Assembly: GCA_963772095.1 (NCBI GenBank)
Contig: CAVYVU010000013.1
Location: 39,358-103,357 of the forward strand
Reading direction: 5' to 3'
Origin: an uncultured Thermoleophilia bacterium
Lineage (GTDB): Bacteria; Actinomycetota; Thermoleophilia; RBG-16-64-13
DNA length: 64,000 bases
Shown here: positions 1,425-50,856 of the stretch, piece after piece
Position numbering within the stretch: the stretch's first letter is position 1
Layout of the letters: every line of letters begins with the position of its first letter
Program-made: the position numbers and the translations under genes
The notes under the pieces: model-generated
What the model saw: the letters and a program-made list of their open reading frames with translations, nothing else
Told to the model about the DNA's origin: nothing
The model's database searches: none

Positions 1425-4400
1425 ATGGCCAACCAACCTCCTCACGAAATCACTGCAGAAAGCGGCCCGCCCGTAAGGATCTTCATCGATGGGCACCATC
1501 TGCAGGTGGATCCCGACGTGACGATCCTCGAAGCCGCACAGGCAAACGATATTTCGATACCGACGCTCTGCCACGACCCCCGTCTAACCCCGGTCGGCCG
1601 TTGTGGGCTGTGCCTCGTGGAGCTCGTGGACGCCGCGTGGTGGGAGGAACACCTGGCCAGAACGCTGGTCGCCGGCGACGGTGTAAACACCGTGTACGCC
1701 TGCCAGACCCCGGTGGCCGAGGGCATGGAGGTCATTACCTTAAGTCCGGCGATAGCAGAGGCGCGCCGGCTGCGGCTCAACGAGTTTCTCTCCAACCACA
1801 ACGCCTATTGTGAGCCACCCTGCCATTACGCCTGCCCGGCAGGCCTCGATATCCCTGGCTACCTGGCGGCGATCGCCCGGGGAGACGACGCCGACGCCGT
1901 CAGGATCGTCAAGCAGCGACTGCCGCTACCCCGGATCATCGGCCGGGTCTGCCCACGACCCTGCGAAGGCGCCTGCCGCCGGACCCAAGTGGACGAGCAA
2001 CCCGTGGCCATCTGCCAATTGAAGCGTTTCGCCGCCGACCGCGCGAGCGCCGGCCATAAGGCGAATATGGAAGAGAGCGCGCCGCCCAGCGGCAAGAAGA
2101 TCGCGGTCATCGGCAGTGGCCCATCGGGTCTCACCGCCGCCTATTACCTGGCTTTGGCCGGCCACCAAGTCACGATCTTCGAAGCCCTTTCCCAGCCCGG
2201 CGGCATGATGCTCAACGGCATCCCCCCGTATCGCCTGCCCCGGGAGACCATCGCGGAGGAAATCGATGACATCCTCCGGCTGGGCATAGAGTTGAGGCTC
2301 AACACGCGCGTTGGCGAGGAATTCACCTTTGACCGCCTTGAGGCTGAAGGTTTTGCCGCGACGTATCTGGCCATTGGCGCCCAGTGTGGCTCCACCGGCG
2401 GGATTCCCGGAGCCGAGGAGGGCGAGGGAATCTATTCGGCCGTTGATTTTCTTCGCGAGAGCAACGCCGGGTCGTGGGGAAAGCCTCTGGGCAGAACGCT
2501 GGTCGTTGGCGGCGGCTTCACCGCCATGGATGCCTCTCGGTCCTCGATGCGTCTTGGCGCAGAAGAAGTGACCGTAGTCTACCGCCGCACCCGCGAGGAG
2601 ATGCCGGCCACCGCGGACGAAGTAGCCGAGGCGGAGGAGGAAGGGGTCGACCTGCTACTACTCACCGCGCCGGTCTCCGTGGTCCGTGAAGACGGCAAGG
2701 TGACCGGCGTAGTCTGTCAAAAGATGGTGCTGGGCGAACCCGACCCGAGCGGTCGGCGGCGCCCGGAACCGGTACCAGGCTCTGAATTCACCATCGCGGC
2801 GGATACGGTCATCCTGGCCATCGGTCAAGACGTCGACGGACGCGACGTGGAGGATGTCTGCAACCTGACCCCCTGGGGCACCATCGAAGTCAACAAGCTT
2901 ACTTTGCTGACGAGCAAGCCAGGGGTCTTTGCCGGAGGAGACTGCGAGACCGGTCCCGGCACCGTGGTCGATGCCATAGCCGCCGGCCGTCGGGCCGCGG
3001 TCGCCATCGACGCATATGTCTCCGGGAAAGACCCCGAGGCAGCCTGCGCGGCTCCCGGGGCGCGCCTCGACCGACACCGGCCGAAGCTGTTCGACATCGG
3101 CGCCAAGCCGCTGTCCACGACCGCGCGCAGTCATATGCCCTTGCTCCCCGCGCCCGCCCGCCGGAACTTCGATGAGGTCGAGCTGGGCTTCGATGAGGCG
3201 GCGGCCAGGCAGGAAGCCGCCCGATGCCTGCAATGCACTTGCCATGAAGCCTCCACCTGCGAGCTGCAAAGCCTTTCTATCCGCTACGGCGCCGGCACGA
3301 CCGAGTTCAAGGGTGCGTTGGGGCAGTTCGACTTGTTCGACGGGTCGCCGATCCTGCAGCTCGACCGCAAACGCTGCATCCAGTGCCACACGTGCGTCCG
3401 TATCTGCGATGAAGTCGAGCAGTACCACGTCTACCAGGTGGACGATGCCGAGTACCCGGCACTCCGGGGGCAGACTTACCGGGATTCAGGTTGCGTGTCC
3501 TGCGGCCAGTGCATAGACGCCTGCCCCACAGGTGCTCTGGTGAATGCGCAGCTGAAGAGCGCCCGAGAATGGGAAATCACCAGGGTGCGGACCACGTGTC
3601 CGCTGTGCGGCACAGGCTGCAACTTCGATCTGAACGTCAAGGACGGCAGGGTCATCGGCGTCACGAGCGCCGCGGACGCCCCGGTCAACGGCAGCGCCTT
3701 GTGCGTGAAGGGCCGTTTCCACACCGATATGATCCATAGCCCCGACCGCCTCACCACTCCCTTGGTGAGAAAGAACGGCGTTTTGGAAGAGGCCAGCTGG
3801 GACGAGGCCATGAGCGTCGTAGCCCACCGGCTTGAAGAAATACGGGATCGGGACGGCGCCAACGCTTTCGCCGCCTTGAGCTCTGCTCGCTGCACCAACG
3901 AGGACAACTGGCTGATGCAGAAGTTCGTCAGAGTGGTGATGCGCACCAACAACCTCGACCACTGCGCCCGAACCTGACACGCTCCCACCGTGGCCGGTCT
4001 GGCCACATCATTTGGTAGCGCCGCCATGACAAACTCCCTCGACGAGGTGGAATTCTACGACGCCCTCTTCATCATCGGCGCTAACCCGACGGAGGCTCAT
4101 CCCATCATCGGTGGCAAGATGAAGCGTGCTGCAAGGCGCGGCGCCCGGCTCATCGTGGCCGATCCGCGGCACACCGAAATGGTCGACTACTCTCAATTGT
4201 GGCTGCAGCTCACCCCCGGCACCGACGCGGCCCTGGTCAACGGCATGATGAACATCATCATCAACGAAGGCTGGGCCGACCGCGAGTTCATCGCCGAGCG
4301 CTGCGAGGGATATGACGAGCTGTGGGAAGTGGTGCAGAGATACACCCCCGCTGTCGTCAGCGCGATCACCGGGGTTCCCGAAGACAAGCTGTACGCAGCC

Positions 4401-5598
4401 GCCGAGATCTACGCGCGCACCCCTCGGACCGGCATCTTCTACACCCTCGGCATCACCGAACACACCACTGGTACGGCCAACGTCATGAACCTGGCCAATC
4501 TGGCTATGGTCACCGGCCACGTCGGTAAGGCGCATTCCGGCGTCAACCCGCTCCGCGGTCAGAACAACGTCCAGGGAGCCTGTGATATGGGCGCCTTGCC
4601 GAACGTGTTGTCCGACTATCGGTCGGTGTCAGACGCCCAGACCAGGGAGACTTTCGAGCAGAGATGGGGGGTGAAGCTAGACGACAAGCCTGGGCTGCGC
4701 ATCCCGGAGATGTTCGACGCGATCATCAGCGGCGATCTCAAAGCCATGTACGTCATGGGCGAAGATCCGGTACTCACCGATGCCGATGCCAACCATGTCC
4801 GCAAGGCTATCGCGGGCCTCGAATTCCTGGTGGTCCAGGACATCTTCTTAACGGAGACGGCCAAATACGCGGATGTGGTGCTGCCGGCCGCCTGCTACGC
4901 GGAAAAAGACGGCACCTTCACCAACACCGAGCGCCGCGTGCAGCGGGTGCGCAAGGCGGTGGAACCTCCTGGCCAGGCGCGTGCCGATTGGGAGATCATT
5001 TGCGACCTGTCACGGCGCATGGGGTATGAGATGAACTATGACTCCCCGGCGGAGATCTTCGAGGAGATCAGGAGCCTCACGCCGTCCTATGCCGGGATGA
5101 CCTACGGCCGGGTGGACGCCTGCGGACTCCAATGGCCGTGTCCCGACATCGATCATCCGGGCACGCCCTATCTGCATGAAGCTACTTTTCCCCGGGGCAG
5201 GGGCAGATTGATCGGCATCGAGTCACGAGGCACCCGACGAACTCACAAACGAGGAGTATCCGATTCTTCTCACGACCGGGCGGATGCTCTATCAGTACAA
5301 CGTCTCCACCAGACGATCCGGGACCCTGGATTCGCTGGCGCCGCATGAACTAGCCGAGATCAATCCGGCGGACGCCGCCGCCATCGGAGTGTCCGAGGGA
5401 GAGAAGATGCGGGTCAGCTCGCGGCGCGGCTCGGTCGTGACCCGGGTGACGGTCACCGAACGCGTGCCCCCGGGGATTCTCTTCATGACCTTCCACTTCT
5501 TGGAAACAGCGGTGAACGAGCTGACCAATTCCGCCTACGACCCGATTTCCAATACGGCGGAATACAAGGTCTGCGCGGTCAGGATCGAAAAGGTTTAG
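1425..5598 (+). CDS. fdhF: Selenocysteine-containing formate dehydrogenase alpha subunit fused to 2Fe-2S and GltD-like NADPH/FAD modules (~1390 aa; one apparent +1 frameshift near 5223)
   Basis: In-frame TGA at 3975-3977 in NLDHCART-U-HAPTVAGL, matching the FdhF Sec site; the frame continues into ORF 3990..5348; removing one base near 5223 joins to YPILLTTGR...EYKVCAVRIEKV; Fer2, GltD (GSGPSG, GGGFTAMD, YRR), 2x4Fe-4S, CPLCGTGC and molybdopterin motifs present. Confidence 0.92.
3978..4010 (+). promoter_or_regulatory. Bacterial SECIS element
   Basis: Perfect hairpin GTGGCC-GGTCT-GGCCAC at 3990-4006, 12 nt after the UGA; the GGUCU apical sequence matches the E. coli fdhF SECIS as I recall it. 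Confidence 0.85.
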
Positions 5599-38030: not shown

Positions 38031-39923
38031 CTAGCCCCCGGCGAGTACCTCTTCCTCTAGGTGTTCGGATGTGTCGAAGCCTGCACGCGTTTCCACAAGT
38101 ACCTTGGTGTAAGCGTTTTGCGGTCGCTCAAATATCTCGGCAGTGGGTGCGCGTTCAACGATCACGCCGCCGGCAAGGACTGCAACCTCAGTGGCCAGGG
38201 AACGCACCAGGGCGAGCTGGTGGGTGATAAAGACCAAGCCGACGCCTTCCTCTTCGAGGAGTCTTCGCAAAAGCTCGATGATCGAGGCCTGTACGGACAC
38301 GTCCAAGGCGGAAGTGACCTCATCACAGATCAGGTAGCGCGGTCGGCAGATCAACGCTCGAGCCAGTGCGACACGCTGGCGCTCACCACCGCTCAGTTGA
38401 TGGGGGTAGCGGTCAACGTATGAGACCGACAGGGAAACCTTGGCGAGAGTCTCGCCGACTGCAGCACGCGCGCCGGCGCCGCCGAAGAAGAGCTTGTGCG
38501 GTTGCGCGACGATGTCGAAGACCGTCTTCCGCGGGTTGAGGGATGCAAAGGGATTCTGAAATACATATTGGATTGCTTGGCGCGTCGAGGCGGGCCGACG
38601 TTGAACCTCCCGCTCTAGAGTCTGGCCTTCGAGCCGGACCTCCCCTCGATAGCGCCCGTGTAGCCCTGCAAGGCATCGGGCCAAGGTCGTCTTCCCGCTC
38701 CCCGACTCGCCGACAACTGCAAGACAGTCACCGCGGATGACATCCAGGCTGATTCCACGGAGAATCTGTCGCGCCCCATAGCTCGCGTACAGATCAGCGG
38801 CCACAAGACCCTTCAATTCCTCCTGTCTGGTGGACACGGCAAGTACCTGAGGAGGTCGGGACCGCAACTGTTCGACCAATTCCACCCGCAGGCACCTCAC
38901 CTGGTGAGTGGGCGATATGAATCCCGTTTCAGGCAGGACTTGGAAGCAGGCTTCATCCGCGATCTCACATCGAGGTGCAAAGGCGCAGCCTGGCGCACGT
39001 TCAAAGGGTGACGGGGCCTGGCCTGGTATCCCTACCAAGGCGTGACGGCCCGACCCTTCGGGCACTGCGTCAAGCAGCCTTTTCGTATACGGATGTCTCG
39101 GGTTGTCAATGACCTCCCTGATCGGCCCTGACTCGACTACTGTTCCCGCGTACATGACGGCCAGCCTATCCGCGACCGACGAGACGACAGCCAAGTCGTG
39201 ACTCACCCAGACAGCCGCGACCCGGTGACGAGTGCACATGTCGCGCACCAAACGAACGATATGTCCTTGAGTGATCACATCGAGCCCCGTGGTGGGCTCA
39301 TCTAGAATCACGAGAGATGGTCCGCAGGAGAAGGCAGCAGCAATCAATACCCGTTGCTGTTGGCCACCCGACAACTGGTGCGGGTAGCGCCGAAGGAAGG
39401 CGGCGTCGCTTGGCAGCAGCACTTCCTCCATGAGCTGTCTGAGGCGCTGACGTCGGTCGGCTCGGTCGCGCCCGACATGGTGAACACGGAGCATCTCATC
39501 GAGTTGTCGGCCGATTCTTCGCCCCGGGTTGAGTGCGGTGCCAGGGTCTTGCGAGACGTAGGAGACGACTCGGCCACGAACCTGCCTCAATTCCCGAGGC
39601 GCCAACGTCAGAAGTTCCTTGGGCCCGATGATGACCTCACCGGCCGCGATTCGCAGCCCACGCTGCGCGAAACCAAGCAGCGCGAGCGCCAGAGTCGTTT
39701 TGCCGCACCCTGACTCACCGACCAGCCCCAGGATCTCACCCGGAGCGATGACGAAAGAGACTGGGGCAACAATTCCGGTTCCGTCAGTGGTAGTAACACT
39801 CAGGACGTTTGCGCAAGCTGCACCCCCATGGCCTTCCTCGGGGATCGGCTCACCGCGACCATCCATGGCACCCGCCGATTTGCCGACGACCCCGGACAAG
39901 TCTGTGTCTTTGGTACTCATCAT
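38031..39923 (-). CDS. Fused double-ATPase subunit (DppD/DppF-like) of a peptide/nickel ABC importer
   Basis: Two Walker A motifs ([16 protein letters not shown]), two YPHQLSGG signatures, oligo_HPY motif HPYT; start at 39923/39920 coupled to the permease stop. Confidence 0.92.
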
Positions 39924-41832: not shown

Positions 41833-42253
41833 GCCCCTCCCCACGGTTCCGCCTCGATGTGCAAGATTCTCTCTACTCCCACCGAGGCGATAATGCAAAT
41901 CCCGCGAGCGACTCCAATCGGTCAGTACTCTGGCACGGCTGGATGCTTCTGGCCGTACCCGAAATATCCAACCTAATCAATTGATATCATGACGCTTGAT
42001 ACAAAACAAATCCTGTTTTCATTCGACATGATGCATTTTTGTAGTCGACAACAATAATGGCAATGTGATATATGTGAGAGACACGACCGTGCCGAGAGCC
42101 GGGCGAGGCCACGACAATGATCGGGAGGACGGCTTACACGCACCAGACCTCCGGCGCCGTGACTCAACCCCCCGACGAGTGGCTCTCGCGATGATTCCGA
42201 CGGTTGCGCTAACACACGGCGTCGCAAGCTCTTGTCAGGAGGAGAGTGCGCCC

Positions 42254-43858
42254 ATGGGAACCGAGACCACGCCCTTCAGGAATGAGCCTCCCGTCGACTT
42301 CTCGCTTGAGTCGAGTCGCCAAGCGATGGCTGAAGCACTCGACGTCAGACGCAGACACCTTGGGGGCCATCACCCCCTGATCGTGGACGGCAAAGACGTG
42401 ACCAGCCTTACATCAACCACCTCGGTGAACCCTGCGCATGCCCGTCAGATCATCGGAACGGTATCAGCGGCTGGCCCGAGAGAGGTCGACGCCGCCTTGA
42501 ACGTTGCGCGACAGGCTTTTTCTGCATGGCGCGATACGCTGCCCAGCGAGCGGGCCACCATCATGTTCAAGGCCGCCGCCATCATGCGAGCGCGACGCTT
42601 TCAGCTCTCTGCGCTTCTGGTGCTCGAGGCCGGGAAGCCGTGGATCGAGGCCGACGCGGACACGTGTGAGGCCATTGATTTCCTCGAGTACTACGCTCGC
42701 GAGATGCTTCGTCTTGAAAGACCTTCGCGCCTCGGCCGTGACTCTGCTGAGAGGGGTTTCTACTTCTACGAGCCTCGCGGCGTGGCCGTCGTCATCGCTC
42801 CGTGGAATTTCCCGCTGGCGATTGCCACCGGAATGACGTCGGCGGCTCTTGTGACCGGCAACACGGTCGTCTTCAAGCCTGCCTCTCCCACTTCCGTCTT
42901 GGGCGCCGAGATGGTTCACATATTTCATGAAGCGGGCGTGCCCGTCTCTGCTCTGAGCTTCCTTCCGTGTGTGGGGAAGGACACTGGCGCGATGCTGGTG
43001 CGAGATCCCCGGGTCGACCTGATTGCCTTCACCGGGAGCCTAGAGGTGGGTCTGTTCATCCTCCGCGAAGCCGGCTTGGTGCGCCCAGGGCAGCGCAGCA
43101 TCAAGAAAGTGGTCGCCGAGATGGGCGGCAAGAACGCAATCATCGTAGACTCAGACGCAGACCTCGATTCAGCCGCGGCGGGAGTCGTACGCTCGGCCTT
43201 CTTCTACTCGGGGCAAAAGTGCTCAGCCTGTAGTCGCGTAATCGTCCACGAGGCCGTTTACAAACCGTTTCTAGAGCGCCTGCTGGATCAGACCTCCTCC
43301 CTCGCAGTGGGCGACCCAGCCGACCAAGGGACGCAAGTAGGCCCCGTAATTTCTGCAGAAGCGCGCAGCAAGATCCTCGCGTACATCGAGAGAGGGAAGG
43401 GGGAGGCGCGGCTGGTCCTTCCGTCCAATGGCGAAGAGCCGCAATCGGACGGTTTCTTTGTACGACCCCATGTCTTTGTCGACGTCTCCCGGGGCGCGAC
43501 GATTGCTCAAGAGGAGATCTTTGGTCCTGTCCTAGCCGTATTCAAGACCGCGGACTTCGATCAGGCGCTCGAGTTGGCGCTGAGCGTGCCCTACGCACTA
43601 ACAGGGGGAGTCTACTCGCGGGATCCGCACAATCTTCGGAGAGCTTTCCGTGAGTTCCGGGTGGGCAATCTCTATATCAACCGCCATATCACTGGAGCCT
43701 TGGTCGGGCTTCACCCCTTCGGTGGCTCGCGAATGAGCGGTGTAGGGTCAAAGGCCGGCGGTCCAGACTACTTGCTCCAGTTCCTTGAACCTCGAGTGGT
43801 TACCGAGAGCCTCACGGACATCGACATGGACTTGGTCGGAAGCCTCTATTCTGCCTGA
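42254..43858 (+). CDS. pruA: L-glutamate gamma-semialdehyde (P5C) dehydrogenase, stand-alone RocA/PruA type
   Basis: FRNEP, EADADTCEAIDFLEYY, PWNFPLAI, AEMGGKN, GQKCSACSR, EEIFGP, GSKAGGPDYL; no proline dehydrogenase domain. Confidence 0.88.
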   Translation: MGTETTPFRNEPPVDFSLESSRQAMAEALDVRRRHLGGHHPLIVDGKDVTSLTSTTSVNPAHARQIIGTVSAAGPREVDAALNVARQAFSAWRDTLPSERATIMFKAAAIMRARRFQLSALLVLEAGKPWIEADADTCEAIDFLEYYAREMLRLERPSRLGRDSAERGFYFYEPRGVAVVIAPWNFPLAIATGMTSAALVTGNTVVFKPASPTSVLGAEMVHIFHEAGVPVSALSFLPCVGKDTGAMLVRDPRVDLIAFTGSLEVGLFILREAGLVRPGQRSIKKVVAEMGGKNAIIVDSDADLDSAAAGVVRSAFFYSGQKCSACSRVIVHEAVYKPFLERLLDQTSSLAVGDPADQGTQVGPVISAEARSKILAYIERGKGEARLVLPSNGEEPQSDGFFVRPHVFVDVSRGATIAQEEIFGPVLAVFKTADFDQALELALSVPYALTGGVYSRDPHNLRRAFREFRVGNLYINRHITGALVGLHPFGGSRMSGVGSKAGGPDYLLQFLEPRVVTESLTDIDMDLVGSLYSA

Positions 43859-43934
43859 GGCGCGTCTGCCAAGATGGCCACATGTGTACGATGAGATCCC
43901 CGCCCGGCCGGATCCTGAAAGATCGGCCAACCAC

Positions 43935-45317
43935 ATGAGCCGGACAGCCGAAGCTCGGCCCCGAGCGACCGCCGATCTTGCGCACCACGAAATCGTTCGG
44001 ACCTGGTGGCCGCTAGCTGGCAGCTGGCTCCTGATGAGCATTGAAGGCCCGGCGATGGCCGCCATCATCGCCCGCCTTGCTCACCCCGAAATAAACCTTG
44101 CAGCATACGGCGGTCTGGTCTTTCCCATCGCCGTGTTGATCGAGGCCCCCATAATGATGATCTTGGCTGCCTCCACAGCCCTGAGCCGTGATTGGCTATG
44201 CTACGCAAAGCTGCGTAGGTTCACGCATGTACTTGGGGCTGGTCTGACAGCGATTCACGTAATCCTGGTGGCCACGCCTGTGTACTACTTTGTGGCCCGA
44301 GGGCTGGTACACGCGCCCGAGGAGATCATCAGACCCGCGCGGCTGGGTCTTCTCATCGTGATCCCCTGGACGTGGTCGATCGCCTACCGCCGCTTCGGCC
44401 AGGGAGTCCTCATCCGCCTTCGCCGTTCCATCTGGGTAGGCACAGGAACCGTGATAAGACTGGCAGCTGAAGTCGCGGTTCTAGCCGTAGGGTACGCCAT
44501 CGGCTCGCTTGCCGGCGTAGCGGTTGCAGCCCTGGCCATGAATGCGGGAGTGATGAGTGAAGCACTCTTTGTCTTCATTGTCCTACGGAAACCGCTGAAG
44601 ACTGAATTGAAGCCCGCACCTATACTTCAGCGGCCGTTCACCACGCGGGAGCTCATACGCTTCTACGTCCCACTCGCCTTGACATCGACGATAGCGCAGA
44701 TCTGCGCCCCTATCGGCAGCGCGGCCATAAGCCGCATGCCCAGAGCTCTCGACTCTTTGGCAACGTGGCCGGTGGTGAGCGCGATGAGACTCCTGGCGAG
44801 CAGCCCGGGTCTTGCTTACAACGAAACCGTAGTAGCCCTCGTTGAGCGACCGAAATCATCTCAAAGGCTATGGAGATTCAGTCTCACCCTGAGTGCGTTC
44901 GCCACGGCCGGTCTCGTATTGCTCATCACTCCACCAGTGGCGAACCTCGTATTCAAGAGCCTCCTTCATCTACCTCCAGCGGTTGCCCTACTTAGCCATC
45001 GCAGCCTGTGGTTCCTCTTGCCGATGCCGACGATCGCGGTACTTCAAAGTTGGTATCAGGGCGTAATCCTACACAGCGGAAGGACGCGGAGCATCATCGA
45101 ATCGGTTCTGCTCTTCACGGTGGTCATCGCCAGTTTCCTGGCTGCTGGGGTGAGTTGGGGGATCTTCACCGGTATATACGTGGCAGCAGGAACGTTCACA
45201 GTTGGCGATATCGTGCGGACGGTATGGCTGTGGATCCGCAGCAGAAGTGCCCGCCGATCACTCGCGGCCAGAGATTCGGAAACGATCGAGGCTGTTGATT
45301 CGGCCGCCGCGAGCTGA
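43935..45317 (+). CDS. MATE/MOP-superfamily (ANKH-like) membrane transporter
   Basis: WWPLAGSWLLMSIEGP..AAIIARL..PEINLAAYG; two-fold internal symmetry (FYVPLALT...ISRMP...LATW); about 12 TM segments. Confidence 0.65.
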   Translation: MSRTAEARPRATADLAHHEIVRTWWPLAGSWLLMSIEGPAMAAIIARLAHPEINLAAYGGLVFPIAVLIEAPIMMILAASTALSRDWLCYAKLRRFTHVLGAGLTAIHVILVATPVYYFVARGLVHAPEEIIRPARLGLLIVIPWTWSIAYRRFGQGVLIRLRRSIWVGTGTVIRLAAEVAVLAVGYAIGSLAGVAVAALAMNAGVMSEALFVFIVLRKPLKTELKPAPILQRPFTTRELIRFYVPLALTSTIAQICAPIGSAAISRMPRALDSLATWPVVSAMRLLASSPGLAYNETVVALVERPKSSQRLWRFSLTLSAFATAGLVLLITPPVANLVFKSLLHLPPAVALLSHRSLWFLLPMPTIAVLQSWYQGVILHSGRTRSIIESVLLFTVVIASFLAAGVSWGIFTGIYVAAGTFTVGDIVRTVWLWIRSRSARRSLAARDSETIEAVDSAAAS

Positions 45318-45398: not shown

Positions 45399-46238
45399 TC
45401 AACTATCCTGCCCCTTGGAAAACGAGCTCGCCTCCTGTAGGTGTCGACTTCGCTCCATGGCCGCTTCAACCGCGTGTTGAAAGGCGTCCCGAACTTCTCG
45501 GTCTATCAATACTTCCATCCCCGCGCTATCTACCTCAGAATGCGAGGTCGTCTGTTCAATGAGTTCAGCCGGAGACTCCGAGTAAGCCGACAGCAGTTGC
45601 GCGGTGGTGACCGCTGTCTGTCGCACAAAAGCACGGGCCATGGCTCTCGGCAAACCTACCGCGACAGCTCCGTCTTCAAGGCTCTCGAGGGCGAGCGCGA
45701 GAAAACCGGGACCTGTTCCAGACACAGCCGTGACGGCGTCCAGCATCTTCTCCGGTACTACCTCACAAATGCCCAGGGCGTCGAACAGACCAATCACACT
45801 CTGCATGTCAACATCCGGCGTGTTGGGTTCAGAAGAGAGGGCCACGACACCGACTCCGAGTTCCACCCCTAGGTTTGGCATGATCCGGTAGAGAGCAGGT
45901 CCCGGGCCGATGGTCTTCCGAAGCCATTTCAGGTGGACCCCGGCCATTGACGAGACTATGGTCTGATCCTTTCGCACGAATGGAGCTACAGCAGTCAGAA
46001 CGCCGAGTGCATCCTTAGGCTTTACGACCACGAACAGAACATCTACATTTCTTACCAGATCTTCGAGGGAGCGAGCCAGCGACACGGGGCCAGGAGTAAG
46101 CAGCCGAAAGGCCGACTCTTTGATCTTATCCCAAACGAGTATTTCCAGGCCTGGCTCCGGCGCACGAAGCCAGCCCTTGACCAAGGCGGAGCCCATGTTG
46201 CCGGTACCTATGACTCCGAGGGTCATTCCCATAATCAT
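45399..46238 (-). CDS. proC: Pyrroline-5-carboxylate reductase-like protein (divergent C-terminus)
   Basis: IGTGNMGSA, VVKP, SSMAGV, RIMPN, DAVTAVSGTGPG, EDGAVAVGLPR. Confidence 0.82.
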   Translation of the reverse strand: MIMGMTLGVIGTGNMGSALVKGWLRAPEPGLEILVWDKIKESAFRLLTPGPVSLARSLEDLVRNVDVLFVVVKPKDALGVLTAVAPFVRKDQTIVSSMAGVHLKWLRKTIGPGPALYRIMPNLGVELGVGVVALSSEPNTPDVDMQSVIGLFDALGICEVVPEKMLDAVTAVSGTGPGFLALALESLEDGAVAVGLPRAMARAFVRQTAVTTAQLLSAYSESPAELIEQTTSHSEVDSAGMEVLIDREVRDAFQHAVEAAMERSRHLQEASSFSKGQDS

Positions 46239-46433: not shown

Positions 46434-47123
46434 TCAAAGACCGGCCCAGAGTCTTCCCAGAGCGTTGTGCCAGTGGTCGAAGGCCACCCTTTCCGCCTCG
46501 TCCGGTGAATGGCTTCTGAGGGCTTCTAGGATGCGCTCGTGCTCGCCAATAGAGGGCATCGTCGGAACGCCACGGCCGTAAGCAAAACGCCAAAAGCGAA
46601 CCGAATAGCGGTTCAAGCGCATTGCCGCATCCCGGAGGTACTTGTTTTGAGTAGCAGCCAGGACTGCCTCGTGAAAGCGTAGATTCAGCAGAGCAGCCTG
46701 GTCTACATCCCCCGCTTCGGCAGCGGATCTCTCCGCGTTCAAGATCGACTCGATCTCCCCCAACTCAGCCTCGGTGATCCGTACTGCAGCCAGTCTCGCC
46801 GCAAAAGGCTCCAGACCCTCTTGACACTCCGAGATGAGCGCATAATCGGCGATGTCGAGCCCCGCGACAGTGCTTCCCATGCCTGGGATTTGTTTGATCA
46901 AATACTCCTGCGCGAGAACGAGCAGGGCTTCCCTTAATGGAGTCCTGCCGACGCCGAGTTGCTTGGCAAGCTGACTCTCACTCACGACGGCACCGGGTGG
47001 CAGCTCGAAACTCACGATCATGGACCTAATGGTCTCCACCAAGTCTGTCGACTGGCGAGCCATCCGGCGCCGTGGCATGGGCCGGTTTGTTTGCGACGAT
47101 CCAGCCTCGGACAATGTCACCAC
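46434..47123 (-). CDS. GntR family regulator (FCD domain), paralog 2
   Basis: SESQLAKQLGVGRTPLREAL; NLRFH...EHERILEAL; closely similar to 33988..34677; start uncertain. Confidence 0.92.
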   Translation of the reverse strand: MVTLSEAGSSQTNRPMPRRRMARQSTDLVETIRSMIVSFELPPGAVVSESQLAKQLGVGRTPLREALLVLAQEYLIKQIPGMGSTVAGLDIADYALISECQEGLEPFAARLAAVRITEAELGEIESILNAERSAAEAGDVDQAALLNLRFHEAVLAATQNKYLRDAAMRLNRYSVRFWRFAYGRGVPTMPSIGEHERILEALRSHSPDEAERVAFDHWHNALGRLWAGL

Positions 47124-47441: not shown

Positions 47442-48722
47442 CTACAGAACGATAAGTTCCATCGGGAAGCTGCCGAGAACAAGGGGTTCGTCCTCCTTGA
47501 TAATGCAAGTCTTCTGGGCATTGGCCGACCTAGCCCCTTGGCGAACCTCGCCACCACCATAAATGACCACAGAATGACCGGGTTCTAACACGATGTCTTC
47601 CCAAGAGAACTGCGGCTGCGGCCGGTCGATTGTATTGATGCCAATGCCGGAAATCTCGCCGAGGAAGCAGCCGTGTATCAGGTTTTCCCTGTCTTTTTCG
47701 GGAGTTGTGACCAGGGGCTCAAACCCATGGTCAACTTTGTAAAGGTTGACCTTCTTGTGGATGTCGGCCCCCGTGGCACCAGGACGCAGTAGAGACGCCG
47801 TATAGTAAAGCATCTCCACCGCTTCATCCCACACTTCCCTGATCTCCGGATGGGGTTCGCTGAAGAAGAAATTACGACCATTGGTGGCGTAGTAGCCACC
47901 ACTGCCCTGGGCTTCCAACATTAGGCCGACATAGTCGTCCTCTCCGAGACGGTAGTTCGGGTCGTCTGCAAAGCGCGTGCTGACCCCCGCATTCGCGCTG
48001 GACGTTTCGTCATCGGCGCTGAACGCCGCGTTGCGGCCGAAGCCGACCAGAACCTTTCCCATCAGCGTGGGGTCGGCGCCCCACAGCACCATCTGTCGGG
48101 TGATATCCGCTGTGATTTCCCAGAACGCGCGGCCGGGATGGAGGTAGTTAGCGGCGCTGGCGAATACCCTCTCCTGAATGGCCACAGCATCTGCTATCAG
48201 TTCAATCTCCTCATCGCTCTTGACCGCCTTCATGTGCTCGATTTCATTACTGAAATCAATGATCTCCACCCTGGGCGCCGTCTCCTCTAGATACTGTTTG
48301 AAAGCAGCCGTCAAATACCCCAAGCCATCATAGGCAATACGTTTGGCGCCTTTGATGTGTGTACGCATGTCCACGACCCCGGTGTAGGGGTCCCGGCTCT
48401 TCAGATTGCAGCAGGCCTTGACCCCTGGGATTTCGGCGAGTTCGCCGTCCACGGGGAGGATTAACGTCATGGTATTCCGGTAGCCGTTGTAGCCGCCCAA
48501 CCAGTACAGAGAAGAATGGCAGCCGAAAGTCGCAGTGGGGAACCAGCCCTGGGCAATCAACAGGTCACAGTCCATTTCCCTGAGTTTGGCGCGAACCAGA
48601 GTATGGCGACGTTCAATTTCCTCCTTCGAAAACCGCGAGATGCCGGTGTGTCCGAAGGGCTTATCGTTCGCCAGATGGAAGATCATATTCGGCCATCTTC
48701 GGGCATCAAACAATTCGAACAT
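47442..48722 (-). CDS. M24 (creatinase/Xaa-Pro peptidase fold) protein, paralog 2
   Basis: FSKEEIERRH, KAVKSDEEI, GGYYATNGR, LRPG; colinear with 31342..32616 (shared RWPNM, WFPTATF, FRNTMT/YRNTMT, INTIDRP). Confidence 0.8.
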   Translation of the reverse strand: MFELFDARRWPNMIFHLANDKPFGHTGISRFSKEEIERRHTLVRAKLREMDCDLLIAQGWFPTATFGCHSSLYWLGGYNGYRNTMTLILPVDGELAEIPGVKACCNLKSRDPYTGVVDMRTHIKGAKRIAYDGLGYLTAAFKQYLEETAPRVEIIDFSNEIEHMKAVKSDEEIELIADAVAIQERVFASAANYLHPGRAFWEITADITRQMVLWGADPTLMGKVLVGFGRNAAFSADDETSSANAGVSTRFADDPNYRLGEDDYVGLMLEAQGSGGYYATNGRNFFFSEPHPEIREVWDEAVEMLYYTASLLRPGATGADIHKKVNLYKVDHGFEPLVTTPEKDRENLIHGCFLGEISGIGINTIDRPQPQFSWEDIVLEPGHSVVIYGGGEVRQGARSANAQKTCIIKEDEPLVLGSFPMELIVL

Positions 48723-49300: not shown

Positions 49301-50856
49301 TTGTTAGATCGGAACAACAGCCGGTTGCAGGACATTTCCACGACCAAGGTACAGAGCCCGTCGGAGCTACAGCGGCGGCGGTGGCGCGTGCTCGTCATCG
49401 CTTCGGTGGGCGTGTTCATGGCCACCCTCGATTCGAGCATCGTGGCCGTGGCCTTGCCGGTCATAGGTCCCCATCTGCGCCTCACCTACAGCGATGCCCT
49501 GTGGGTTCAGGCGGCCTACATTCTAGTTGTCACCGTTCTCGTCATCCCCGTGGGGCGCTTGGCCGACATGCGGGGCCCCTTGCGCCTCTACACTCTTGGG
49601 GTCCTCCTTTTCGGCCTTTTCTCGGTGGTGGCGGCGCTCTCCTCTGACGGCCTCTTTCTCGTTGTGGCCAGGGTCTTTCAAGGGGTGGGTGGCGCGTTGC
49701 TCGCCGCCACGAGTGCGGCCATCGTGACCGCGGCGTTCCCGCCGGAAGAGCGGGGCCGGGCGCTCGGCCTCAACTTCATGGTCGCCTACCTCGGCCTCAC
49801 TCTGGGCCCACCCTTGGGCGGCCTCATTGTCACCCATCTCGGCTGGCGCTGGATATTCCTTGTTAATGCCCCGATCGCGGTCGCTATCCTCGTTGGGGGC
49901 TGGGATCTCCTCGGCGCCGAGCGACGGGACCGAGCGGCCGAGCGCGAGCGAAGAGGCATTCCCGTGGAGCGGTGGCCACATCGACACTCTGGGCGCGGCT
50001 CTCTTGGGGATGATGCTGGCGACCTTGTTTGTGCCCTTGATCTTCTCCCCGCTGTGGGGGTGGGCGAACGGGCGCACGATCGGTCTCCTGGCCGCGGCGG
50101 TCGTCTTGGCTGGAGTGTTCGTTCTCGTTGAGGGCCGGGTGAGAGACCCCGTCCTTGACCTTAGCCTCTTCCGGCGCAATCGCGTGTTTGCCGGAGCCAA
50201 CGCCGCTTCCCTTCTCTATTTTGCGGCTACCTATGGGGTAACCATCTTCACGGCGGTGTTCTTGGAAGTAGTCCAAGGGCGCTCAGCCCAGCGGGCTGGA
50301 CTTATCCTGCTGACTCAGCCGGCTATCATGACGGCCTTTGCTCCGTTCACCGGTCGGCTCTCGGACCGAGTCGGCTCGCACGGTCTAGCCGCCGCGGGGA
50401 TGATCGTCATGGCGGCAGGAATGGGGCAGTTGGCCCTCGTCTCTTCCTCGACCTCCGTCTGGCGGGTCGCTGGCCGCGCTGGCTACCTTGGGTCTGGGGA
50501 TGGCCTTCTTCGCCGCTCCCAATGTCTCCGCCGTCATGGGCTCGGTTGACCGGTCTCAGTTGGGCGTGGCTTCGGGGGTTCGCGCCACCATGAACTTCTG
50601 TGGGCAAGGGCTATCCATAGCCCTGCTCGGCGCCATTGCCGCCTCCAAGTTGGGCCCGGCGGGCGGACGCGTCATCTTGCTGGGCGAGAGCGCAGGCCTC
50701 ACCAACGCCCAGGCCTTCGCCGCCGGCTACCGGGAGGCGATGCTGGCGGGGGCCGGGCTGGCCCTCGCCGGTGCCTTGGCTTCACTCGTACGGGAGAAAA
50801 GACCGAAAAAAGTGGCGGCACTGGGAGCCTCAGGCCATCCCGCCGCCCTAGACTAA
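49301..50856 (+). CDS. DHA2 (EmrB/QacA) family MFS transporter, two frameshifts
   Basis: MATLDSSIVAVALP, GRLAD, FPPEERGRALG, WRWIFLVNAP, PVLDLSLFRRNR, GRLSDR; pieces in ORFs 49301..50131, 49827..50549 and 50488..50856. Confidence 0.88.

Follow-up and report, generated by a model that had tools for sequence, protein, structure and literature searches.

We consider here a gene in a 64,000-nucleotide stretch of DNA from an uncultured Thermoleophilia bacterium (positions 39,358 to 103,357 of contig CAVYVU010000013.1, assembly GCA_963772095.1); the whole stretch is called the window below. The source genome, G000, is a 66%-complete metagenome-assembled genome (MAG) of 2.7 Mb in 28 contigs, and the window is on the contig that we number C13. 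At positions 45399..46238, on the minus strand, lies a single open reading frame (ORF) that encodes 279 amino acids if it is read from the first ATG. In public gene calls the identical protein (P0002) starts two codons later and has 277 residues, and the second ATG, at 46232, is the likely start. Judged by its sequence, the product, which we call ProC', is an extra, derived and lineage-restricted paralog in the superfamily of 1-pyrroline-5-carboxylate (P5C) reductases, and it is without motif E, the site at which these enzymes bind the carboxylate of P5C or proline (PMC7939384, PMC5539093).

By alignment ProC' is a full-length homolog of P5C reductase (P5CR). Pfam identifies the dimerisation domain P5CR_dimer (PF14748, 1.2e-25) at residues 163-267 and, in the N-terminal half, a Rossmann domain of the F420_oxidored/NAD_binding_2 type (NAD_binding_2, 36 bits, residues 7-96). 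The TIGR00112 model for proC aligns from end to end and gives 192.2 bits, which does not reach its cut-off of 196.75. Canonical ProCs of the GTDB family concerned (f1) score 218-230 bits with the same model and members of the ProC' clade 181-206, some of them above the cut-off. An AlphaFold2 (AF2) monomer model of ProC' has the P5CR fold, with a mean predicted local distance difference test score (pLDDT) of 83.8 (above 90 in the N-domain, 54-85 in the C-domain), and its top PDB matches are P5C reductases without exception. Residues 223-246 are modelled as two helices with a one-residue break between them. The predicted structure confirms the P5CR fold and nothing beyond the fold.

The motifs of ProC'

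The P5CR motifs as described by Forlani and colleagues are B (GxxGxGxM and VKP), C (RxMxN), D (GSxPA) and E (SPGGTT, the P5C loop) (PMC5539093). A first-pass annotation of this DNA, made from the sequence alone, had stated that the NADPH-binding and RxMPN motifs of ProC' are intact, and they are. The glycine-rich dinucleotide-binding loop of motif B is formed by residues 8-18, GVIGTGNMGSA (46185..46217, minus strand, as are all motifs given here); its G8, G11, G13, G16 and A18 are 96-100% conserved in paralogs and canonical ProCs alike. The second part of motif B, V72-K73-P74, which contacts the pyrophosphate, is at 46017..46025 (motif definition from PMC5539093). Motif C, R118-I-M-P-N122, lies around the nicotinamide (45873..45887) and does not vary in 77 paralogs. 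Together with the P5CR dimerisation domain, motifs B and C are thus present as expected of the ProC family.

The wall of the pocket on which the substrate ring lies is also kept. The segment T170-A-V-S-G-T-G-P-G178 (45705..45731) comprises the alphaH-alphaI kink and motif D, and T170 corresponds to Thr171 of PYCR1 (PMC9878632, PMC7939384). In PYCR1 the substrate ring rests on this kink of the partner protomer (PMC7939384), where Thr171 contacts the ring, and the T171M substitution removes most of the activity (PMC9878632). The motif D hinge reads G174-T-G-P-G178 in ProC' and G-S-G-P-A in the clade consensus; with T170 in place we accept it as motif D.

Motif E is the part that is replaced. At 45519..45551, in the alphaK-alphaL loop, ProC' has the degenerate sequence T230-T-S-H-S-E-V-D-S-A-G240 instead of V-(A/T)-S-P-G-G-T-T-I-A-G, and S232-H-S-E-V-D237 stands where S-P-G-G-T-T is expected. 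Ungapped phmmer alignments with PDB sequences place TSHSEVDSAG of ProC' opposite TSPGGTTIAG of Medicago P5CR (5bse) and opposite CSPGGATIHA of human PYCR2, which bears out the first-pass report that the SPGGTT loop has been lost and that TTSHSEVDSAG is found instead; the role in carboxylate binding that it gave to motif E agrees with the literature (PMC7939384, PMC5539093). In terms of PYCR1, S232 is equivalent to Ser233, H233 to Pro234, S234 to Gly235, E235 to Gly236, V236 to Ala237 and D237 to Thr238. The PYCR1 residues that hold the substrate carboxylate are Thr238, Ser233 and Ala237 of this loop (PMC7939384). Two positions of the carboxylate clamp, those of PYCR1 Gly236 and Thr238, are occupied in ProC' by the acidic E235 and D237.

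The same pattern is seen across the ProC' clade. According to column statistics, this clade has lost canonical conservation at residues 230-242 and nowhere else, and here the motif E loop is hypervariable, prone to insertions and deletions, and deleted in one member. Elsewhere, 31 positions are invariant and about 50 nearly invariant in the 77 paralogs, among them G16, G22, V72-K73, S96, G100, R118, M120-P121-N122, E163 and G174. Gains specific to the clade include W36, K38 (beside D37), A193/L196 and the invariant M98 (45945..45947), where 94% of canonical ProCs have Ala. M98 aligns with Ala96 of PYCR1, two residues ahead of Gly98, which belongs to the active-site water network (PMC9878632).

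Could the odd loop be an error, for example a compensated frameshift introduced by sequencing or assembly, or could the gene be a decaying pseudogene? The source genome is an incomplete MAG, and split genes occur in several assemblies of the family. However, both other frames over 45519-45551 contain stop codons and neither contains PGGTT, which excludes a compensated frameshift at the level of the sequence. An ortholog from an independent metagenome assembly (locus L003) is 87% identical to ProC' and has the loop TSQSEVDNAG. Between the two, the ratio of nonsynonymous to synonymous substitution rates (dN/dS, Nei-Gojobori) is 0.165 for the whole gene, with dS of 0.40, and 0.44 for residues 228-245, where there are few sites. 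The ORF is intact and ProC' is under purifying selection. The loss of motif E is common to about 100 further homologs from independent assemblies. We consider the chance that an artefact or a pseudogene lies behind the loop to be negligible.

Origin of the clade and the canonical proC

Among 5.8 billion clustered proteins, a search found 120 close homologs of ProC'. About 90 of these are without motif E, and the loop is different in each (ASTG-DLDQAG, APPG-DPLREG, VFGYDHVAGPA and so on); the others are canonical ProCs with ASPGGTTIAGL, 51-58% identical to ProC'. In phylogenetic trees (147 rows with FastTree, 78 rows with IQ-TREE under LG+C20) a single branch separates all loop-less sequences from the rest, with an SH-aLRT value of 100, or 99 when the loop columns are left out. 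The clade branches from within the canonical ProCs of family f1, and the canonical ProCs of other families of the class lie outside. The trees show a single origin of the ProC' clade, which would have arisen by duplication of a canonical P5C reductase within this family.

Its distribution is narrow. ProC' is found in about 30 of 61 genomes, and in 7 of 19 genera, among the GTDB representatives of the family; 245 genomes from 11 other families of the class gave no match at E<=1e-45. The source records are titled as Thermoleophilia, Gaiellales or Actinomycetota MAGs and come from uncultured organisms of soil and sediment. In a profile search against 1.84 billion representatives the clade amounts to about 11 clusters, and every protein outside the clade among the best 150 matches keeps a loop resembling S-x-x-G-T-T. 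The top match, of 676 residues, was considered as a potentially informative fusion and rejected, being a tandem canonical P5CR.

The first-pass annotation had argued that ProC' is not an enzyme of housekeeping proline synthesis and had proposed to look for a second, canonical proC in the genome. There is one. A fragment of it, VASPGGTTIAGL, is present at G000:C16:370874-371035, where it runs into the contig end; it contains KDQVASPGGTTIAGLAVLEDEG, matches the canonical ProC of a same-genus genome at 83% identity and has a DivIVA-like gene after it. Relatives that carry ProC' also have a gene with (V/R)VASPGGTT in 16 of the 18 second-copy regions examined. As for the remaining two, L067 has the motif but belongs to a genome (G047) in which ProC' was not shown, and G003 is too partial to judge. 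Since the canonical gene coexists with ProC' in G000, as it does in the 16 carrier relatives, ProC' is not needed for proline biosynthesis, and that part of the earlier argument stands. In genus g3 two genomes, G004 and G021 (98% and 87% complete), have no ProC-like match at all; these organisms are either proline auxotrophs or have an alternative route to proline.

It might still be suggested that ProC' is a working P5C reductase, a second isozyme with another binding mode or a low affinity. Everything in it other than motif E is canonical, its TIGR00112 score of 192 bits is near the cut-off that some clade members exceed, and all four P5CR paralogs of B. subtilis reduce some P5C in vitro (PMC5539093). 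In addition, one genome of the family that is 96% complete (G011) yielded only the loop-less copy when searched with ProC'. On the other side, the carboxylate contacts of PYCR1 come from the loop (PMC7939384), which is acidic in ProC', free to vary in the clade and once deleted; B. subtilis ComER, whose loss is similar, has an activity about 2000-fold below that of ProH (PMC5539093); and a canonical copy is present in the same genome. We find this suggestion very unlikely.

Neighbourhoods of ProC'

In the window, ProC' is preceded on the same strand by a gene for a GntR/FCD-family regulator (46434..47123, minus), 195 bp upstream, and by a gene for an M24-fold (creatinase/prolidase-like) protein (47442..48722, minus), which is separated from the regulator gene by 318 bp. 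Convergent with ProC' is a gene for a RocA-type L-glutamate gamma-semialdehyde (P5C) dehydrogenase (42065..43858, plus; NF002852, 663.8 bits with a cut-off of 648). The ORF of the latter has an N-terminal extension of 60-70 residues outside the family models, and its true start is probably a Met near residue 64. Between the dehydrogenase and ProC' there is a gene for a multi-pass membrane protein of about 440-510 residues (43785..45317, plus), without a Pfam or NCBIfam match and conserved beside ProC' in L003; a peptide-type ABC transporter comes after the dehydrogenase. The order M24, GntR/FCD, ProC', membrane protein, aldehyde dehydrogenase and ABC permease recurs in L003. Further along the window, a DHA2-family MFS transporter is split over overlapping frames (49301-50131 and 49827-50549, plus), which is a frameshift or an assembly error.

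This setting suggests that ProC' could be a cyclic-imine reductase of a local catabolic island, consisting of PhzA/B-like genes, two M24-fold paralogs, the peptide ABC transporter and the P5C dehydrogenase, under the control of the GntR/FCD regulator. P5CR chemistry is suited to cyclic imines, the gene order is kept in the 87%-identical L003, and at 30-50 kb of the window the guanine-plus-cytosine (GC) content is 0.545-0.61, which is below the flanks. Yet the synteny extends over a very short evolutionary distance only: the next-nearest relatives of ProC', P0006 and P0008, and the bulk of the clade are found elsewhere. Intergenic DNA is 89% identical to that of L003 and no more informative than coding DNA. 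The gaps of 195 and 318 bp separate all three same-strand genes, and a search for an operator or promoter shared by M24, GntR and ProC' found short palindromes only, with no promoter-like site upstream of ProC'. Moreover, ProC' and a formate dehydrogenase gene in the window are convergent, as is usual for the clade, so that the island may be an insertion between them. A role as a cyclic-imine reductase would be chemically plausible for ProC', but nothing ties it to the PhzA/B-M24 island, and we regard the island explanation as rather unlikely. The first-pass annotation had attached significance to the P5C dehydrogenase and the PhzA/B-M24 cluster; this argument did not survive the comparison. 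It is weak because such a setting is the exception in the clade, being common to ProC' and L003 only, and a formate/tetrahydrofolate cluster is what is found in most genomes that carry ProC'.

That cluster was seen by comparing 25 non-redundant paralog loci (the window, L003, L004, L036, L039 and L042-L061), in which ORFs were clustered by all-against-all BLASTP and neighbours annotated with Pfam. The dominant array runs FtsH > ProC' > CBS-domain protein (210 residues) > [formate dehydrogenase molybdopterin subunit < Pyr_redox_2/Fe-S module <] and continues as [FocA <] [corrinoid protein < GntR/UTRA <] fhs > fchA > folD > metF > lpd. The CBS gene is directly downstream of ProC' in at least 13 of the 25 loci. 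The distance between ProC' and fhs is 2.5-9 kb in 21 of the roughly 30 genomes that carry ProC', whereas none of 22 loci of canonical proC in this family has fhs on its contig at a distance of 10 kb or less; the genomes are kin, and these counts are not independent. In P0006 and P0008, which are 62-65% identical to ProC', there is an operon of ProC', Ldh_2, a corrinoid protein, a URO-D methyltransferase and a pterin-binding methyltransferase; stop and start codons overlap in it, and the Ldh_2 gene (DpkA/malate-lactate dehydrogenase-2 family) is translationally coupled to ProC'. Genus g11 shows an overlap between the beginning of ProC' and a gene for a zinc alcohol dehydrogenase. Several recurrent "unknown" neighbours (clusters c7, c16 and c20, and probably c13, c17 and c29 too) proved to be antisense ORFs that lie opposite real genes where the DNA is rich in GC.

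The methyl-branch cluster fhs-fchA-folD-metF-lpd of this family is Clostridium-like and is accompanied by an NADPH-type formate dehydrogenase, FocA, a corrinoid protein and GntR/UTRA, for example in L050, L052, L057, L059 and L061. In a number of MAGs (G041, G043, G050, G060, G071, G072, G073 and others) fhs and ProC' are broken into adjacent pieces, for which frequent frameshift errors are more likely than pseudogenes.

Contig C13 of G000 carries this cluster too. At 7-19 kb it has GntR/UTRA, fhs, fchA, folD, metF, lpd, a corrinoid protein, two URO-D genes and DUF1638, at 35-37 kb a second fhs, and at 40.8-44.6 kb a formate dehydrogenase. The latter falls into the window (1425..5348, plus), where tblastn of cluster proteins onto C13 identifies it as the NADPH-type formate dehydrogenase of the one-carbon (C1) cluster. 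Its orientation relative to ProC' (plus and minus, convergent) matches the usual array of the clade, but the two are 40 kb apart. A parsimonious reading would be that ProC' has been cut off from its former neighbours in the C1 cluster by island DNA. The genome as a whole has at least 11 corrinoid (B12-binding) proteins and at least 12 URO-D-type methyltransferase genes, and such numbers imply a demethylating or methylotrophic lifestyle.

What ProC' may do, and comparison with known systems

We lean, by a small degree, towards the view that ProC' is a neofunctionalised NAD(P)(H) oxidoreductase whose substrate is not P5C. In this case ProC' would keep the apparatus for hydride transfer, namely the Rossmann NAD(P)H site, motif C, the wall made by T170 and the alphaH-alphaI kink, and the dimerisation domain, and would have lost the carboxylate clamp of the alphaK-alphaL loop. 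Because the cofactor site, motif C, the ring wall and the dimerisation domain are under strong purifying selection while the clamp drifts freely, with indels and acidic residues in it, ProC' probably still positions a molecule other than P5C against NAD(P)H. This molecule would probably be a small ring of the imine, iminium or aminal type that has no alpha-carboxylate. We infer the retention of catalysis, the loss of P5C activity and any link with C1 metabolism from the comparisons given above.

Several observations weigh against this view. With a pLDDT of 54-85 in the C-domain, the geometry of the pocket is unreadable from the AF2 model. Phyletic patterns name no partner: formate dehydrogenase and fhs are found, and folA is missing, throughout the family, whereas ProC' is present in only 7 of 19 genera. 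Genera g5 and g15 have orthologs of the CBS protein but no ProC', and in g15 the gene array is otherwise the same. Phyletic coupling of ProC' to formate dehydrogenase, fhs or the CBS protein was accordingly rejected, as there is no co-variation. In G000, which is incomplete, no CBS ortholog was found, and the local context of ProC' departs from the norm of the clade. Finally, a loop that varies freely shows disuse and not an alternative ligand, and a non-catalytic role in NAD(P)H binding fits the same data.

Such a non-catalytic ProC' could be an NAD(P)(H)-binding dimer that works as a subunit for redox sensing, regulation or scaffolding, perhaps in concert with the CBS protein where one is adjacent. 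The CBS domain is a typical adenylate-sensing module, and its gene is often next to ProC'. Where the substrate site had its only side-chain specificity there is now a decayed, hypervariable loop, no new conserved loop has taken its place, and no pathway gap that ProC' could fill was found among the genomes of the family. However, the T170/motif D wall and motif C are invariant or nearly so, which goes beyond what cofactor binding alone needs; the invariant M98 near the active site suggests a pocket that has been reshaped, not abandoned; and the absence of a CBS ortholog from what is available of G000 does not help the proposed partnership. On balance a purely non-catalytic role is unlikely, although it is the alternative that we take most seriously.

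If ProC' is an oxidoreductase with a substrate other than P5C, a more specific suggestion can be made. It could be an enzyme of C1 metabolism that acts on a five-membered N-heterocycle in Actinomycetota of the Wood-Ljungdahl type. Chemically apt candidates are the imidazolidine or imidazolinium ring of 5,10-methylene- or 5,10-methenyl-tetrahydrofolate and a formaldehyde-derived adduct of the thiazolidine type. Oxidation of thiazolidine-4-carboxylate by E. coli ProC is mentioned, as a cited report (reference 32), in PMC7939384. A C1 role would explain why ProC' is usually sited between ftsH/CBS and the array of formate dehydrogenase, FocA, fhs, fchA, folD and metF, or in a corrinoid-methyltransferase operon. 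We offer this as a doubtful idea, on a par with the island explanation.

Two other candidates were considered. Dihydrofolate reductase (PF00186) was not found in any of the 61 genomes of the family, despite full folate C1 clusters. Replacement of this enzyme by ProC' is unsupported: PF00186 is missing with or without ProC', and ProC' cannot be the general dihydrofolate reductase of a family in which genomes without ProC' are also without PF00186. An F420-linked enzyme such as Fno (PF03807-type) was rejected as well; CofD was not found in five genomes of the family, where CofH-like matches were below the cut-off, and ProC' has a P5CR_dimer domain instead of the short C-terminal domain of the Fno type.

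The P5C reductase label is probably wrong for ProC' and would distort reconstructions of the proline pathway in these MAGs. About half of the clade, including the protein of the window, has been named pyrroline-5-carboxylate reductase automatically because the scores are near the equivalog cut-off. If it is true that the placement with formate and tetrahydrofolate genes reflects function, there would be an undescribed NAD(P)H-linked C1 step in uncultured, corrinoid-rich Actinomycetota.

We know several systems with which ProC' can be compared. Canonical ProC/PYCR (EC 1.5.1.2; PDB 5bse, 5uat/5uau/5uav, 2rcy and 2ahr) is like ProC' in its two-domain fold, in its length, in motifs B, C and D and in its P5CR_dimer domain. 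ProC' differs from it in having no motif E, Met in place of Ala at position 98 and a score below the TIGR00112 cut-off, and in being an extra copy in a different context. Pyr2C/Pip2C (1-pyrroline-2-carboxylate/1-piperideine-2-carboxylate) reductases of the DpkA/Ldh_2 type and imine reductases, which are beta-hydroxyacid-dehydrogenase-like, may share the chemistry, that is, delivery of hydride to the C=N bond of a small ring. They are unrelated to ProC' in the C-terminal half, and the likeness is confined to the N-terminal Rossmann part.

The closest parallel is ComER of B. subtilis (P39696). Like ProC', it is a paralog of the ProC family in which motif E is degenerate, and it has genuine P5C reductases beside it in the genome. 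Its kcat/Km for P5C is 29 M-1 s-1, it is not inhibited by proline, and it has been proposed to use NADPH to reduce a different substrate (PMC5539093). The two are not orthologs, as the score with NF005814 is 74 bits, the cut-off being 278, and the ProC' clade has its place in the tree within the ProCs of actinobacteria. Motifs C (R-x-I-x-A/S) and D are changed too in ComER, which is a monomer, whereas ProC' keeps both motifs and therefore probably still dimerises. The ProC' clade may be seen as a natural experiment, in which the cofactor site and the ring wall are selected while the clamp drifts, and as a second example beside the ComER of Bacillus.

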